IMG/VR virus record: IMGVR_UViG_3300031555_004294
Coordinates: 160,001-224,000 of that record
Origin: a virus
Taxonomy: Duplodnaviria > Caudoviricetes
Reading direction: 5' to 3' (one strand)
DNA length: 64,000 nt
Part shown: positions 17,300 to 23,547 of the stretch, in pieces
How positions within the stretch are numbered: position 1 is the stretch's first letter
How the letters are laid out: the number at the start of each line of letters is the position of its first letter
Made by a program: the position numbers and the translations under genes
The notes under the pieces: generated by a model
The model's input: the letters and a program-made list of their open reading frames with translations, nothing else
Databases searched by the model: none
What the model was told of the DNA's origin: nothing

Positions 17300-18244
17300 T
17301 TATGCCCATGGAATTTGTGATTTTCTATAATAAGCCGATTGTTTACTGCTAGAAATTTTAAAGTCGTCATATGCTTCTCTTGCGTCTTTAGGTAGTGAAG
17401 CATAGTTATCTTTAAAAAAGTTTTTGTCAAAAACCAAGTTCTTAGACTTGTCTAAAACACATAAACCTTTAGAATCTAAACCTTTTTCTATTGTTTCAAT
17501 CAGCTTGTAGTTGTAGATTCTAAAGAAATCACACCAATTTATATTTTCGTCCTTGTATTTTTCTAAGAAATATTTTGAGATGATGAAATTATGTTTTCCA
17601 TCAGTTCTATAGTTGTAACTTGTAAATTCGTAAATGTCAATTCTATCTTTATATGTTTCAAAATTCTTAGGATTACAAAGGCAGATTGCATATTTTGAAA
17701 GGGATTTCCAATCTAACTTATCCTTGTACATTTCTACCTTTTTAAGAGAAATGTCAGTCTGACAGGATAATGCATGAAAGTCCATAGTACTACTTTTATC
17801 ATCAGTTAAGTATTTTAGACTTTCTTTTGGTAAGCCTTTTTTAGTTAAAAGCATAGGGATAAGACTATTTTCATTGAGTTCTTTATCGAATTCGTTTATG
17901 AATTCAATTGTAAATCGATTTCCATTACTTCTATAAACAAAATCTCGCCAGTCTATATAGTCTCGATTTACTTTTAAAAATTCCATGTTTATATTAACAT
18001 TTACACAGAGTTTTCCAAGATAAGGTTTTAAGTACTCGTAGAACTCATCTATGAATTCATCAGTAAGAGTATTACGAGTAGCAATTTGGTACCAAGAAAT
18101 ATTACTTTTATATTTCCTGATAATCTCTACATCTTCTGGTTTTGTTATTTTTAGTTTCTTTGTAAATTCGTATGGTTTATCAATAATTCCACTTAATACC
18201 AAATCGAATTCTTTTTGTTTTGCTGTTTTCTTTGTGTTAGCCAT
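17300..18244 (-). CDS. Tryptophan-repeat protein (degenerate repeats) with KQKEFDL tag
   Basis: ISW/IDW/LDW/INW repeats and LTDEFIDEF. Confidence 0.75.
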   Translation of the reverse strand: MANTKKTAKQKEFDLVLSGIIDKPYEFTKKLKITKPEDVEIIRKYKSNISWYQIATRNTLTDEFIDEFYEYLKPYLGKLCVNVNINMEFLKVNRDYIDWRDFVYRSNGNRFTIEFINEFDKELNENSLIPMLLTKKGLPKESLKYLTDDKSSTMDFHALSCQTDISLKKVEMYKDKLDWKSLSKYAICLCNPKNFETYKDRIDIYEFTSYNYRTDGKHNFIISKYFLEKYKDENINWCDFFRIYNYKLIETIEKGLDSKGLCVLDKSKNLVFDKNFFKDNYASLPKDAREAYDDFKISSSKQSAYYRKSQIPWA

Positions 18245-18554
18245 TTGTTATATAACCTTCCTTTTTCATTTCTTCTACGAGATCTTTTGATAAGTATTGA
18301 GAGTAGCAAATAATTTGCCAATCAATTTTATTTTTGAATTCCCTAATAAAATCTTCGGATAAATGTTGGTAGCGAGAAATCTTTTGCCAATCAAGTATAT
18401 CTTGGAATTCTCTTATAAAATCTTCTGGTAAATTTTGACTACATTGACAAGTAAACCAAAATCTTTCAGAATTATATTTTTCCTTATAGCGTTTCCATAA
18501 GTCTCTATATTTGACTTCCAGATCAAATATCTGTTGCTTGGTTAGTTTTATCAT
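18237..18554 (-). CDS. Tryptophan-repeat protein (2 full repeats) with KQQIFDLE tag
   Basis: L(P/S)EDFIREF...DW x2; ends KKEGYITNG. Confidence 0.85.
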   Translation of the reverse strand: MIKLTKQQIFDLEVKYRDLWKRYKEKYNSERFWFTCQCSQNLPEDFIREFQDILDWQKISRYQHLSEDFIREFKNKIDWQIICYSQYLSKDLVEEMKKEGYITNG

Positions 18555-19159
18555 TAAATATAACCTTCCTTTTTTATCCTATCGATAAATTCTTTAGACA
18601 AGTGTTTATGTCGTCCAAGTATCACTATATTCTTCCAATTTAATCTATCTTTAAATTCTTCCATAAAGTTTTCAGTAAAATTTTTATGACAGTTTGCTGA
18701 TAGTACAGCCCAATCTATCTTATTCTGAAATTCTCGTATAAAGTCTTCTGATAGATTACTATTTATCATCGAAATAACTACCCAATCAACATGATCTTGA
18801 AATTCTCGTATAAAGTCTTCTGATAATTTTTGAGCGTAAGAAATACCTTTCCAAATAACTTTATCTTTAAACTCTCTTATAAAATCTTCAGATAATTTTT
18901 GATAATAGGAAATATTCTCCCAGTCTACTTTATCTTTAAACTCTCGTATAAAGTCTTCTGATAAAGTTGAGTGACAAGAAATATGTTTCCAATTTAAATT
19001 ATCCTGAAATTTTCTTATAAAGTCTTCAGATAGTTGTTTTGTCACTATATGACTCCAAAATCCTTTGTTATTATATTTCCCTTTATAAGAATAATCATTC
19101 CAAAGATGTCTATAAACAAATTCCAAATCAAACTTTTGTTTTTTAGTTAGTTTAGTCAT
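18554..19159 (-). CDS. Tryptophan-repeat protein (about 6 repeats) with KKQKFDLE tag
   Basis: LSEDFIREFxDxxxW repeats of about 23 aa (69 bp); ends KKEGYI. Confidence 0.85.
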   Translation of the reverse strand: MTKLTKKQKFDLEFVYRHLWNDYSYKGKYNNKGFWSHIVTKQLSEDFIRKFQDNLNWKHISCHSTLSEDFIREFKDKVDWENISYYQKLSEDFIREFKDKVIWKGISYAQKLSEDFIREFQDHVDWVVISMINSNLSEDFIREFQNKIDWAVLSANCHKNFTENFMEEFKDRLNWKNIVILGRHKHLSKEFIDRIKKEGYI

Positions 19160-19245: not shown

Positions 19246-19257
19246 AACAATCCATTA
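19246..19257 (+). promoter_or_regulatory. AACA-N6-TA late-type promoter
   Basis: AACAatccatTA upstream of the RNAP gene. Confidence 0.6.
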
Positions 19258-19300
19258 TAAAGTTTTACAACAAATACAGGAAAGGATGGTGAACTTAGTT

Positions 19301-20952
19301 TTGTCTAGAACTGTTAATGAAACAGAAAAGAAATATCTGCTATCTTTAAAACGATCAGATATTACTACAGAACTTTTAAAAGAGCTATTTGCAGTTAGTA
19401 AAAACAATCCAAAATCAAAGTTTGAGCCAACTGATATTTTACAGCTAAATGCTAAAGAATACTATAATGAGAAACTAGTTACAACTACTGTTGGTCGCTT
19501 CATAGTAAATAAATGTCTTCTAGAACCTAAAATTATTGAGTTGATTGGTTACCAAGATATCGTAATTACCAAAAAAACTATGAAAAAATTAGACCAAAAA
19601 ATCATAGACGAATGCTTATTAACTGAGAAAATTACTATGACTGAAATGCATGACTATTTCGACCAATGTAACTGGTTGGCATATAGTTGTACTTATTTTA
19701 TAGTACCTTCATTGGATACTAAGATGTTCAAAGTTGATAAAGACATTTTAGGCATGAAAGAAAAATTGATTGAGGAAAATAAAGAAGCAGTTCAAAATAA
19801 TGATGTTGGCGTTATTTATAACATTGAACAACAACTGTTAACAGCTTCTAAAGAAAAAGTAAAGGACATTCCTGGCTATCAAATCTATGCATCTGGTGCT
19901 AGAGGTAGTTTTGATAACAATTATAAGAACAGTTGCCTTTTAAGGGGTAGTGTAATGAACTTTACTAATCCTTCAGAATTCCAATCCTCAATGGCTTCAC
20001 TGGTAGAAGGAATTCCTAAAGAAGATTTCCACATCTATGCAAATATCTTAACTGCAGGTACTTATGCACGTGCTAAACTAGTGATTCTTGGCACGTAAAT
20101 TCTTTAATTGCTGGAAGAGTAGAAAATACTTAATCAGCATCTCATAAAAATTTTTATGAGTTCAACGACTATATAGAACTTAAATGAGTTCGAAATGAGA
20201 ATTACTAGTTTTTAGTAAAGATATAGTCTTATCTTTAGAGAGATCTAAAGTTATAAAGGATAGGCTTAATGAACCTATACAAAAATTTTATGAAGAACAC
20301 TGAGGTTGGTGGTTACTTAGTTAAGCAATCTCGTTCAGGCTATCAACATCTAATGTTAGATGAAAAGGATAGTGATTGTGGTACTACAAAGTATTTAGAG
20401 ATAGTTTTAACAGACAATAACAAAGGTCTGTTTATGCTAAGATGGATTAAAGGAGACGATGGTAAATTAGTTCTTCTTGATGCTGATAATGTTAATCAGT
20501 ATGTAGGAAAGAAAGTAAAATTACGTTCTCCTTTGTATTGTACAAGTGATAAGATTTGCAGTAAATGTGCTGGAGAACTCTATTACAGGCTCAACATGAA
20601 TAATGTTGGTCTAGTTGCTGACCGTATCGCAAGTACCATCATGCAGAAATCTATGAAACAGTTAAAATCGTATAGCTGTTTACAAATTCTTAAGAATTGC
20701 TGGAAGAGTCATAATGACAAATCAGCAGCCTAATTAAGTTAGGTTCAACGACTAACATACTACAGGAATCTGTAGTTTGTATAAGAACATCTACTTTAAA
20801 GCGAGAAAAAGTAGTAAAGATATAGTCTGAACTTCTATGAAAATAGAAGAAAATGTTGTGTCTAATAAACACACTTAAACATAATTGTCCACGATAGTAC
20901 TATTAAAACTACAAAGCTTGATTTTGAATCTCATCTTGAGAGAATCGATTAA
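19301..20952 (+). CDS. Multisubunit RNA polymerase beta-prime C-terminal subunit, 3 exons (19301-20074, 20293-20662, 20888-20952)
   Basis: TTVGR, SGARGS; splicing gives bridge helix YARA|KNTEVGGYLVKQ, DCGT, LRSPLYC..ICSKC and trigger loop MQKSMKQ(F)HDST. TTG start at 19301 fits the RBS (ATG 19286 is the alternative). Confidence 0.9.
20075..20292 (+). mobile_element. Group I intron 1 (218 nt, no ORF)
   Basis: P1 ACGTGCT/GGCACGT with U-G at the splice site; P AATTGCTGGAA, Q AATCAGCA, R GTTCAACGACTA, S AAGATATAGTCT; terminal G; P10 GTGATTCTT/AAGAACAC. Confidence 0.92.
20663..20887 (+). mobile_element. Group I intron 2 (225 nt, no ORF)
   Basis: P1 AAACAGT/GCTGTTT with U-G; same P/Q/R/S cores; terminal G; P10 ATCGT/ACGAT; splicing creates a TTC Phe codon. 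Confidence 0.92.
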
Positions 20953-20956
20953 AAAA

Positions 20957-20995
20957 AAAGAATCCCTAATACTGTTTTAGTATTAGGGATTTTCT
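20957..20995. terminator. Bidirectional terminator
   Basis: AATCCCTAATACT/AGTATTAGGGATT between convergent genes. Confidence 0.8.
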
Positions 20996-21274
20996 TTATA
21001 GTTTCTTTAAACAATCTTTACTGTCCACATAAAATTTAGTAGCTTTATCATACAAAAACATACCAGGATCACCGACTTCAATAATTCTATCAAAATCATC
21101 ACGTAAGTATTCATAACAACTAACGCAAACATCTGATGGGAGTAATATTCTGCCAATCTCAACATAGTAATAGAAACAATCTTTTTCAGAACAGTATATT
21201 ACCAGTTTTTCTGATTCTTCTTTGTTAAGAAGAAAGTTGAACAATATTTCTTTTAAAGTATAAGTCTTTTCCAT
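20996..21274 (-). CDS. Array C paralog (YTLKEILFNF)
   Basis: Start re-called to MEKTYTLKE; shares IYC.EKD with the next gene. Confidence 0.7.
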   Translation of the reverse strand: MEKTYTLKEILFNFLLNKEESEKLVIYCSEKDCFYYYVEIGRILLPSDVCVSCYEYLRDDFDRIIEVGDPGMFLYDKATKFYVDSKDCLKKL

Positions 21275-21284
21275 ATAACTTTTG

Positions 21285-21557
21285 TCAATACTTTCTAAAT
21301 AAGTTTTCGCTAATCTGATAAAATCTAGCATCAGCATTTTTAATAATAAAACCATCATAGATCATAATAAGGTATGGTGTTCTTGTATAAAAAGTTCCAG
21401 TTAGATTGGTATTAAAGTTAGCTGGAGTATTATTTTTAACAAAATTGTAAGATTCTTCAATATCTTTTTCAAAACAATAAATCGCTATCTTTTTTACTTT
21501 TTCATGATCCATGTTAAAATTAAACATGATTTCTTTTAAAGTACAAATTTCATTCAT
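21285..21557 (-). CDS. Array C paralog (CTLKEIMFNF)
   Basis: Shared tag. Confidence 0.7.
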   Translation of the reverse strand: MNEICTLKEIMFNFNMDHEKVKKIAIYCFEKDIEESYNFVKNNTPANFNTNLTGTFYTRTPYLIMIYDGFIIKNADARFYQISENLFRKY

Positions 21558-21837
21558 ATTTTGGCAACCTCATAAACTTATCTTTATCAAACTGACCAAA
21601 AATTTCAAATTCTGATGGTTTTACTTTTCTATTTAACCATACCTCTACAGTTTTTAATCGATCATCTATTGCACTAGCATTAGTTGTATATGTGCGAAAA
21701 CCATTTTCATGTAGTTGATAGAGTATGTTTACCTTAGTTTGTTCATCACAGTCTAATCTAAGGTAGCACTTCCATAAACTATCATAGTTCATACAAAGAT
21801 AAAAGATTAGTTGCTTAAGAGTATAATACTCCATCAT
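21550..21837 (-). CDS. Array C paralog (YTLKQLIFYLC)
   Basis: Shared tag, L.EN, and F.Q.D.DKF C-terminus. Confidence 0.8.
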   Translation of the reverse strand: MMEYYTLKQLIFYLCMNYDSLWKCYLRLDCDEQTKVNILYQLHENGFRTYTTNASAIDDRLKTVEVWLNRKVKPSEFEIFGQFDKDKFMRLPKYE

Positions 21838-21839
21838 TT

Positions 21840-22133
21840 TTACCTACTTTCCCTAAATTTAGGTAATCTTACAAAAGTATCATCATCTACCTGACCAAAT
21901 ATTTCAACTTCATCAACTAGTCTGGTATTGCAGTAGACAGTAATGGTACGGTCTAATGGTTTATCAACAGAACAGTAACCAACAAAATATCTGTCAAATT
22001 TGTTTTCAATAAGTTTGGTAAGGATATTGTTTTTTACATTGTCCTCACAGTGTAGTTGAATGTGTGCAGTACTAATGTTATCTCGGTTTAAACACAGGAA
22101 GAAAAGTAACTGTTTAAAAGTATATTTTTCCAT
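21840..22133 (-). CDS. Array C paralog (YTFKQLLFFLC)
   Basis: Start re-called to MEKYTF. Confidence 0.8.
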   Translation of the reverse strand: MEKYTFKQLLFFLCLNRDNISTAHIQLHCEDNVKNNILTKLIENKFDRYFVGYCSVDKPLDRTITVYCNTRLVDEVEIFGQVDDDTFVRLPKFRESR

Positions 22134-22401
22134 AATTTTTCTTCTCCATTTTTGTAAATTTATCAGCATCAAATTGCTCAAACTTAATTATTGGACATGA
22201 TATATCTTTACAAATGTCTATTATTAAGCGACAATGTTTATAGTCTCCACGAATTACACGTATGACAAAAATATTGTTTTCACGTAATTGGTTTTCTATA
22301 TTTTCAATGTTCCCGTTAAGAGCATCAATATAACACTGACTAAACTTTTTCCTATTCATACAGAGATAAAAAATTAGTTGTTTAAGAGTATAAATTTCCA
22401 T
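22114..22401 (-). CDS. Array C paralog (YTLKQLIFYLC)
   Basis: Shared tag and C-terminus. Confidence 0.8.
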   Translation of the reverse strand: MEIYTLKQLIFYLCMNRKKFSQCYIDALNGNIENIENQLRENNIFVIRVIRGDYKHCRLIIDICKDISCPIIKFEQFDADKFTKMEKKNYGKIYF

Positions 22402-22403
22402 TA

Positions 22404-22703
22404 TTAAACAAATTCCTCCACTTTTAAAAACCTATCATCGTCAATCTCTTCAAATATAATTTTTCCATTTGCATTCCTATTAACAAGTACTGCTAAAGAA
22501 GAGTATAAATTGTTTTTTCTTGTACTTTCTTTATAGTATTGAGATTCACTAGTTACAATAAGCTTATTCTCTTCCAATTTCGTAATTACATCACGAACAT
22601 CTATATCTCTTATATCGCCAATATAACACACATAAAATTTCTCTCTGTTTAAACAAAGATAGAAGATCAGCTGCTTAAGACTATAAGTATTCATAGCTTT
22701 CAA
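22404..22703 (-). CDS. Array C paralog (YSLKQLIFYLC)
   Basis: Shared tag; start may be 22694. Confidence 0.8.
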   Translation of the reverse strand: MKAMNTYSLKQLIFYLCLNREKFYVCYIGDIRDIDVRDVITKLEENKLIVTSESQYYKESTRKNNLYSSLAVLVNRNANGKIIFEEIDDDRFLKVEEFV

Positions 22704-22983
22704 TTTCCTCTGTTTTTATAAATTTATCACTGTCTAACTGTTTAAACTCAATAGAGCTATTTAGTGCTTTTTTGTTAAGTCGTAGTGTTAAGCTGCAATG
22801 TGTACGGATATCAAAGTGTGAGTCTACAATGTCAAACTTATTTTCAATTAACTGTTCCCATATCTTATCAACATCCTTTGGGTTTATGTTATAGATAAAA
22901 CATATTCTAAACTGTTTGTCCTTAATCATACACAAATAGAAGATCAACTGCTTAAGGTTATAAACTTCTTGTTCCATCTTCAT
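22681..22983 (-). CDS. Array C paralog (YNLKQLIFYLC)
   Basis: Shared tag; AAGGAG RBS. Confidence 0.8.
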   Translation of the reverse strand: MKMEQEVYNLKQLIFYLCMIKDKQFRICFIYNINPKDVDKIWEQLIENKFDIVDSHFDIRTHCSLTLRLNKKALNSSIEFKQLDSDKFIKTEEIESYEYL

Positions 22984-22992
22984 ATAACTCCT

Positions 22993-23547
22993 TCAAATAT
23001 CAAACTCAATGTTATTAAAATTGATAAACTTTACTCTATCATTGTACAAAGCTGCATAAGTATTAAGACGTTCTTCATTGTCATAAATTATACTTAGCGT
23101 TAAGCCACCATTATCCATATAAAGTTCAAACCACAAAGGACTCATCCAAATACTCTCTGTTATAGTTGGCTTGAAAATGTACTCATTTTCATCACCAAAT
23201 CGTTTACCTTCTAAAAGGTCAAACATATTAGTTGATGGCTTTTGTGGAATGACTATATTGTTGTAAGAATATTCTACTTGGGTAGTTGCTACCTCAATTT
23301 CTGGAGCATTGTAGTCAATATTTATTGACTGGTGGATACAGTGAGCGACAAAATTTTGTATAGCTTCTTCTGTTGGTAGTGAACTTTTGTCAAAGAAAAT
23401 AAAGTAGACATTATTATCAAAAGCTGCATTAAAGATAAGCTTCTTTAATGATACCTTTTCTGGTGTATAACATTCCCATTTTGCAATAATCCTAATGACA
23501 TTATTTGCACCACAGAACCAATTATCATGAGTCGAAATATCAAACAT
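22993..23547 (-). CDS. Hypothetical protein with near-N-terminal SLKKLIFN tag
   Basis: First gene of array C; tag at about residue 33. Confidence 0.65.
   Translation of the reverse strand: MFDISTHDNWFCGANNVIRIIAKWECYTPEKVSLKKLIFNAAFDNNVYFIFFDKSSLPTEEAIQNFVAHCIHQSINIDYNAPEIEVATTQVEYSYNNIVIPQKPSTNMFDLLEGKRFGDENEYIFKPTITESIWMSPLWFELYMDNGGLTLSIIYDNEERLNTYAALYNDRVKFINFNNIEFDI

Follow-up and report, generated by a model that had tools for sequence, protein, structure and literature searches.

Two small group I introns, neither of which contains an open reading frame (ORF) for an endonuclease, interrupt a gene for the virion RNA polymerase of a jumbo phage, and they do so within the two mobile catalytic elements of the enzyme, the bridge helix and the trigger loop. 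The DNA analyzed is a stretch of 64,000 nucleotides (nt), "the window," which represents bases 160001 to 224000 of IMG/VR record IMGVR_UViG_3300031555_004294. The source genome of 299,070 bp has a GC content of 31% and a CheckV completeness of 100%; it is that of an uncultured AR9-like jumbo phage of 299 kb from animal faeces, and eight faecal metagenome runs, recorded as animal gut and faeces samples, contain near-identical DNA. Judged from its sequence, the gene at positions 19286 to 20952 on the plus strand encodes the middle piece of the beta-prime subunit and is the orthologue of AR9 g264. The explanation that fits the evidence as a whole, and that is very probably correct, is that two independent ORF-less group I ribozymes reside in the virion beta-prime pre-mRNA and are both spliced out, with intron 1 as the older of the two and intron 2 as a later gain.

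Read without splicing, the plus-strand ORF starting at 19286 meets a stop after 270 codons, continues in another frame, and is broken a second time. Exons and introns are arranged as follows:

19286 to 20074, plus strand: exon 1, 263 codons, ending ...TAGTYARA, the N-terminal half of the bridge helix
20075 to 20292, plus strand: intron 1, 218 nt, ORF-less group I intron, RF00028 score 57.1 bits
20293 to 20662, plus strand: exon 2, 370 nt, from KNTEVGGYL (C-terminal half of the bridge helix) via a Cys-rich segment to ...IMQKSMKQ and the first base of a Phe codon
20663 to 20887, plus strand: intron 2, 225 nt, ORF-less group I intron, RF00028 score 56.3 bits
20888 to 20952, plus strand: exon 3, 65 nt including the TAA stop, finishing the Phe codon and continuing with HDSTIKTTKLDFESHLERID

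The three exons together (19286 to 20074, 20293 to 20662, and 20888 to 20952) yield 1224 nt and a protein of 407 amino acids that is 45% identical to AR9 g264 (401 amino acids, E 1e-129) and aligns with it without a gap at both junctions. The predicted ligated junctions are ...GCACGTGCT/AAGAACACT... and ...GAAACAGT/TCCACGAT..., with the slash here and below indicating the splice site. In the protein, TYARA/KNTEVGGY aligns with SYSRAVGTREGGY of AR9, and SMKQ/FHDST aligns with SLKAFHDMT (...SLKAFHDMTLK). Taken singly, exon 1 is 45% identical to AR9 g264 and covers positions 30 to 294 of the phrog_2962 profile (E 1.2e-39), and exon 2 is 47% identical and covers positions 296 to 414 (E 2e-28), so that the profile is broken between 294 and 296 by site 1. 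Exon 2 also matches the non-virion beta-prime chains 7s00_D and 7ogp_D of AR9 and phiKZ. Exon 3 possesses neither a start codon nor a ribosome-binding site of its own; it contains the conserved FHD motif in frame and with it the trigger-loop His.

No match was obtained for single exons in Pfam at E≤0.1, for exon 1 in the PDB with phmmer, or for the gene among GenBank phages with megablast. A profile built from seven intronless orthologues and searched against the PDB matched bacterial beta-prime chains across both motifs. In the bridge helix, profile "ysrA/vetrkgGY" was aligned with bacterial "ADTA/LKTADSGY," and in the trigger loop, "smka/FH" with "TMRT/FH," including the catalytic His. Site 1 is therefore RA/KN in the bridge helix, and site 2 is KQ/FH in the trigger loop, with a single residue between the splice site and the His. 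The annotation of AR9 g264 is that of a virion RNA polymerase subunit, and the virion beta-prime of AR9-like phages is divided into three genes for an N-terminal, a middle, and a C-terminal part (Korn et al., bioRxiv 10.1101/2020.12.14.422802). Homology of the product to AR9 g264 spans the full length, taking in the bridge helix and the first half of the trigger loop, and its place as the middle piece explains why it ends about 20 residues past the FH motif. It follows from this anatomy that a functional virion polymerase requires both splicing events. For annotation, the true product would be a 407-amino-acid subunit from three exons, of which ORF callers overlook the last one, with the trigger-loop His. 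An earlier reading of the window from its letters alone (the sequence-only reading) had proposed two ORF-less introns of 218 and 225 nt, the junctions YARA/KNTEVGGYL and SMKQ/F/HDST, their location in the bridge helix and trigger loop, and a 65-nt third exon with the His; all of this agreed with the covariance models, the AR9 alignment and spliced frame, the DNA of a relative described below, and the orthologue profile.

The identity of both inserts as group I introns was obtained by cmscan of positions 19900 to 21100 with the Rfam model RF00028 (Intron_gpI, gathering score 50 bits), which gave 57.1 bits (E 1.4e-13) for intron 1 and 56.3 bits (E 2.5e-13) for intron 2. A covariance search of the genome itself returned the same two RF00028 matches. 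When the entire 64-kb window was scanned with Rfam, neither intron was returned with the gathering score or with E≤0.01 as the cutoff, an artefact of the speed filters. Routine annotation would therefore miss both introns, and under-calling is likely for small AT-rich group I introns of phages like this one. The helices on the plus strand are listed here:

Intron 1, core: P3, 20098 to 20103 with 20198 to 20203; P4, 20109 to 20114 with 20134 to 20139; P5, 20117 to 20131; P6, 20141 to 20160
Intron 1, 3' part: P7, 20167 to 20171 with 20224 to 20228; P7.1, 20176 to 20191; P8, 20204 to 20216; P9, 20233 to 20250; P9.1, 20260 to 20278
Intron 2, core: P3, 20687 to 20692 with 20782 to 20787; P4, 20698 to 20703 with 20722 to 20727; P5, 20708 to 20718; P6, 20729 to 20743
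Intron 2, 3' part: P7, 20750 to 20754 with 20823 to 20827; P7.1, 20760 to 20775; P8, 20791 to 20814; P9, 20832 to 20849; P9.1, 20858 to 20872

Both introns contain the core strings AAUUGCUGGAAG (P), AAUCAGCA (Q), GUUCAACGACUA (R), and AAGAUAUAGUCU (S). A P2 is absent from both, a P9.1 is present in both, and a single hairpin, P7.1, is located between P7 and P3'. In the classification of Michel and Westhof, subgroup IA is characterized by one or more extra hairpins, P7.1/P7.2, at this position. With one covarying hairpin between P7 and P3' and the second hairpin absent, the predicted layout of both introns is IA-like. The core is also supported by covariation. Eight members of the intron family were aligned with plain MAFFT (alignment A3), and RNAalifold on this alignment independently recovered P4, P6, P7, P7.1, P8, P9, and P9.1. 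Two-sided changes preserved the pairing at 26 of the 40 RNAalifold pairs, for example by the change of a C-G pair in P7 to U-A in the intron near 28.7 kb of the genome. P3, which as a pseudoknot is outside the scope of RNAalifold, was paired in 7 of the 8 sequences; the alignment columns involved were the same, and the pairs were of the AU, UA, and CG types.

The longest stop-free stretches in the two introns comprise 35 and 65 amino acids, and a 60-amino-acid antisense ORF of intron 2 had no match in Pfam or PHROG. An intron-encoded endonuclease ORF, the hallmark of homing in mobile group I introns, was found in neither intron. Inteins could be ruled out since the inserts are non-coding and rich in stops. 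A free-standing homing endonuclease next to the gene, as with AR9 g265, was also rejected: the flanking genes, which code for phrog_3532 repeat proteins and for small paralogues, gave no match to an endonuclease.

As the sequence-only reading had stated, each intron carries its own internal guide sequence. In both introns P1 comprises 7 bp with U·G at the 5' splice site, P10 can form, and the last base is G (all on the plus strand):

20085 to 20096: intron 1 internal guide sequence, UUCUU at 20085 to 20089 (P10) and GGCACGU at 20090 to 20096 (P1)
20068 to 20074 with 20090 to 20096: intron 1 P1, exon ACGUGCU with guide GGCACGU, 7 bp, U20074·G20090
20293 to 20297 with 20085 to 20089: intron 1 P10, 3' exon AAGAA with UUCUU, 5 bp
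20292: intron 1 terminal G (G20292)
20667 to 20681: intron 2 internal guide sequence, AUCGU at 20667 to 20671 (P10) and GCUGUUU at 20675 to 20681 (P1)
20656 to 20662 with 20675 to 20681: intron 2 P1, exon AAACAGU with guide GCUGUUU, 7 bp, U20662·G20675
20891 to 20895 with 20667 to 20671: intron 2 P10, 3' exon ACGAU with AUCGU, 5 bp
20887: intron 2 terminal G (G20887)

The last base of exon 1, U20074, is the exon partner in the U·G pair of intron 1. The Arg codon in front of site 1 is CGT in the window and AGA in two related loci, L010 and L019, and the guide of intron 1 shifts with the exon: exon AGAGCU is accompanied by guide GGCUCU in L010, and exon AAGAGCU by guide GGUUCUU in L019. The guide follows a synonymous codon change, which indicates selection for P1.

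These data can now be combined with the distribution of the introns among relatives. Twelve IMG/VR loci were compared, representing 11 distinct orthologues (L015 is identical to L014, and L021 and L022 are equal to L010 and L019), in addition to AR9. An intron at exactly site 1 is present in L010 (a phage of 319,626 bp; 83% amino acid identity) with 212 nt and in L019 (81% amino acid identity) with 533 nt, of which 341 nt are inserted into the P6 loop. Intron 1 of the window is 82.6% identical to that of L010, and the exons are 77 to 79% identical. This similar divergence fits vertical inheritance of the intron with the gene. Site 2 is empty in L010 and L019, and the DNA of L010, ATGAAACAGT/TCCACGATAGTAC, is the predicted ligated junction 2, letter for letter. 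Both introns are absent, where covered, from nine more distant loci (8 distinct orthologues including AR9, 29 to 53% identity), one of which stops before site 2, while L017 aligned as two overlapping pieces that were not resolved; these colinear intronless orthologues also bear out the alignment that the sequence-only reading had suggested as a check. Two DNA contigs from faecal metagenomes skip intron 2. In X6, position 20662 is joined to 20888, and in X4, 20660 is joined to 20888 with two other letters between them. They are single low-depth contigs of related strains, aligned at 85% likeness and with short flanks, and so do no more than corroborate L010 and L019. No metagenome contig skips intron 1.

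With the distant orthologues as outgroups, these patterns suggest that intron 1 was gained in an ancestor of the window phage, L010, and L019 and was inherited with the gene, and that intron 2 is probably a recent gain in the lineage of the window. The gene would then combine an old ORF-less intron, marked by exon-guide covariation, with a recent one, marked by an exact empty site. The sequences also indicate a rapid turnover of intron content among phages with about 80% identity, because the window-genome orthologue of another gene, L024, contains none of the three introns found in the phage of L010. This gene of the related 319-kb phage (L024:1001-2617) possesses three group I introns with intervening exons of 112 and 66 nt, and its orthologue in the window genome (G000 279245 to 280808, minus strand) is uninterrupted at all three sites.

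In the proposed reaction, each guide sequence would pair with the last 7 exon bases to form P1, in which U·G marks the 5' splice site. This site would be attacked by a free guanosine that occupies P7, and the terminal G would then replace the free guanosine in P7, while P10 would align the 3' exon so that the exons could be ligated. Both splicing events should rebuild the bridge helix (RA/KN) and the trigger loop (KQ/FH) in the 407-amino-acid protein.

Several observations weigh against this explanation. The stretch is absent from all runs recorded as RNA, so that splicing is deduced from structure and conservation. Both introns are small and without P2, and because of this, activity in vitro might need a high Mg2+ concentration or a protein helper. 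The P10 of intron 2 is separated from the splice site by a 2-nt mismatch. No donor copy of intron 2 with more than about 71% identity was found by blastn ranking and string searches, and a gain rather than a loss of intron 2 is favoured only by outgroup parsimony with three close genomes.

Evaluation of the relationship between the two introns needs to consider the other introns of this phage. Introns sharing these cores occur at nine or more places in the window genome, namely near 23.1, 24.6, 28.7, 67.9 to 73.2, 108.5, 180.1, 180.7, 292.2, and 292.5 kb, and several of them carry large inserts in the P6 loop. When ranked by blastn, intron 1 was most similar to its orthologues in L010 and L019 (192 bits, 81%), followed by the 24.6-kb intron (91 bits). 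The best match of intron 2 was L024:2153-2346 (98 bits), an intron that interrupts another gene in the L010 phage, followed by the 28.7-kb intron (75 bits). Introns 1 and 2 formed the weakest listed pair (41 bits, 64% identity). Intron 2 and the 28.7-kb intron have a common P9 stem and a common motif in the P8 loop, AAAGCGAGAAA, both of which are missing in intron 1. The most fitting view of the two introns is that they are selfish passengers, members of a family with nine or more related introns in this genome. Guide retargeting somewhere in the history of this family is trivially true because its members occupy many different sites.

Intron 2 may have arrived by recombination between co-infecting phages, through a homing endonuclease supplied in trans, or by reverse splicing. 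A donor of intron 2 was searched for with exact strings. The P7.1-P3' string gave 0 matches in IMG/VR, the P1 string 0 matches in JGI metagenome contigs, and the P7'-P9 string 0 matches in JGI metagenome contigs and only L024 in IMG/VR. A more specific proposal states that intron 2 is a recent, endonuclease-free ectopic insertion, for instance by reverse splicing via an altered guide, from an ORF-less family that spreads among the genes of gut jumbo phages and favours catalytic motifs. This is possible but rather unlikely. If true, co-occurring relatives with their exact empty site would make this a natural system in which to study endonuclease-independent mobility of group I introns.

Much less likely is the suggestion of the sequence-only reading that both introns are siblings, which arose by local duplication within the gene and subsequent retargeting of the guide. 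Their P, Q, R, and S strings and their architecture are the same, and only 370 nt of one gene are between them. The cores are indeed near-identical, as had been stated, but they do not mark siblings because near-identical strings occur in every other intron of the genome. The mutual blastn match of introns 1 and 2 is weaker than those of either intron with sequences elsewhere, and the P9 stem and P8-loop motif connect intron 2 to the 28.7-kb intron and not to intron 1. Moreover, relatives exist with intron 1 and without intron 2, and a copy made after the split from these relatives should be far more than 64% similar to its source. Local spread with retargeting is therefore not supported.

A regulatory role of the double interruption, with slow or conditional splicing as a timing checkpoint that gates the virion RNA polymerase, is even a little less probable. 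Its support comes from the anatomy only, that is, from the need for both splicing events and from a late-promoter-like motif in front of the gene:

19246 to 19257, plus strand: AACA-N6-TA motif AACAATCCATTA, 28 nt 5' of the start codon, fitting the AR9 late-promoter consensus

The consensus for AR9 late promoters is AACA-(6N)-TA/G (PMC5312081), and the motif would agree with late expression of the beta-prime gene, although a short motif in AT-rich DNA is weak evidence. The absence of intron 2 from close relatives and of both introns from distant ones (AR9 and L011-L018) indicates that such a function would be dispensable. The same intron family is present in other late and early genes of the genome, and insertion into conserved active-site codons is the pattern expected of selfish introns (PMC12908238). 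Least probable of all are decayed relics that no longer splice, leaving the gene broken or made as three polypeptides: the absence of the stretch from runs recorded as RNA and the unusually small size without P2 would fit, but the core helices are all intact and backed by compensatory changes, the guide of intron 1 has matched a synonymous Arg codon change, exon 3 without start codon or ribosome-binding site is still in frame with its conserved FHD, and the genome is complete by CheckV while the enzyme is presumably essential, as the virion RNA polymerase transcribes the early genes in AR9 and phiKZ.

Introns in RNA polymerase subunit genes have been published for the AR9-like phages AR9/PBS1, MarsHill, Madawaska, and Machias (bioRxiv 10.1101/2020.12.14.422802, citing Lavysh et al. 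2016; PMC12350094), so that the sequence-only reading was right to call this occurrence established. Both introns are new instances of these already published intron-bearing polymerase genes and do not change the known kind of element. They have in common with AR9/PBS1 and with the Staphylococcus phages MarsHill, Madawaska, and Machias the phage group, the enzyme, and a variable presence of introns between close relatives. In Machias the same gene, for the middle virion beta-prime (CPT_Machias_171, annotated as joined exons), is interrupted, and the core strings of the window introns are 77 to 82% identical to those of Machias-like Staphylococcus phage introns over about 60 to 75 nt of the P3-P7 core. 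Among GenBank phages, this core match to Machias-like introns was the only one, and there was no close match to either intron sequence. In contrast to the window gene, AR9 g264 itself is intron-free, and the bridge-helix insertions of Machias are 2 and 7 codons downstream of the window site.

The single annotated gap in the Machias gene (MW349128.1, L002:2653-2995) seems to be composed of two tandem group I-like introns of 177 nt (2653 to 2829) and 150 nt (2846 to 2995), separated by a 16-nt mini-exon, ACTCAAGAAGGTGGGT. The resulting three-exon model is gapless against AR9 (RALG/TQEGG/YQAKK). The Rfam scores are only 24 to 25 bits, the first P1 is weak with 3 bp, and a length of 150 nt would be exceptionally short for an intron of group I.

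At the trigger-loop site, no group I intron was found among the listed GenBank jumbo phages, all of which except LPJP1 read through. In Listeria phage LPJP1, the trigger loop of the orthologous gene is interrupted at SM/KAFH, two codons upstream of the window site SMKQ/FH. Unlike the window introns, this one is a group II intron of about 690 nt (RF00029, 66.4 bits; RF02004, 43.2 bits). It is ORF-less and located after CDS (coding sequence) FPHOBKDP_00077 (MZ422438.1, L039:2356-3047); the GenBank CDS ends at the intron, and the last exon, KAFHDMSIKLKEINIDDYIS (site SM/KAFHDM), is unannotated. Four group II introns have been reported for the LPJP1 genome, of which three are ORF-less (PMC12350094), and the trigger-loop intron is probably one of these three. 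In AR9-like virion polymerases, self-splicing introns of more than one class have repeatedly hit both mobile catalytic elements, and the codons affected differ: RA/KN and KQ/FH in the window, two other bridge-helix codons in Machias, and SM/KAFH by a group II intron in LPJP1. These repeated insertions fit the published view of selfish introns at active-site codons, where their persistence is a textbook expectation (PMC12908238).

Endonuclease-bearing group I introns of phages are exemplified by T4 td with I-TevI and by the SPO1 DNA polymerase intron, and endonucleases also mediate competition between nucleus-forming jumbo phages (PMC12908238). The window introns resemble those of T4 td and SPO1 by their position in conserved catalytic codons of an essential gene and by the intact empty site in relatives, and differ from them in that no endonuclease gene is present in either intron or beside the host gene. 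Staphylococcus phage Twort has two small group I introns in nrdE (Landthaler et al. 2002, cited in PMC12908238). As in Twort, a phage of a low-GC Gram-positive host has here several small or ORF-less introns, with an IA-like layout, in a single essential gene whose expression would depend on self-splicing. The host gene is a different one, and splicing was demonstrated by experiment in Twort, whereas here it is deduced. Another gene of Twort, orf142, reportedly contains three introns.

ORFs were noticed in two related introns. The P6-loop insert of the L019 intron (L019:3845-4185, 341 nt) contains a small ORF in antisense orientation, with GGAG ahead of it on that strand and a hairpin behind it, and this layout, a "backward cargo," is the same in other introns of the window genome. 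In the 23.1-kb intron (G000 23040 to 23400, minus strand, outside the window), the end of an ORF (...IKDEWAIENNMNFIRISYKEMSDIEKLLDDFFNNCAESII, then the stop) is directly 5' of P3; this may be an intron-encoded endonuclease upstream of the core.

The beta-prime gene is flanked by genes on the opposite strand:

17300 to 19159, minus strand: three neighbouring genes with repeats of about 25 amino acids (LSEDFIREFxDKxxW), matching phrog_3532 (function unknown)
About 20959 to 21003, called on both strands: terminator-like hairpin, 16 pairs and a T-rich tail
20996 to 22983, minus strand: seven small paralogues of 90 to 120 amino acids, overlapping or abutting

No PHROG match was obtained for two representative members of the seven-paralogue array and one member of the other group of small ORFs. 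The paralogues share an N-terminal motif, Y(T/S/N)LK(Q/E)(L/I)(I/L/M)F, and a C-terminal motif, F.Q.D.D.F, and the terminator-like hairpin closes both the beta-prime gene and this convergent minus-strand array.

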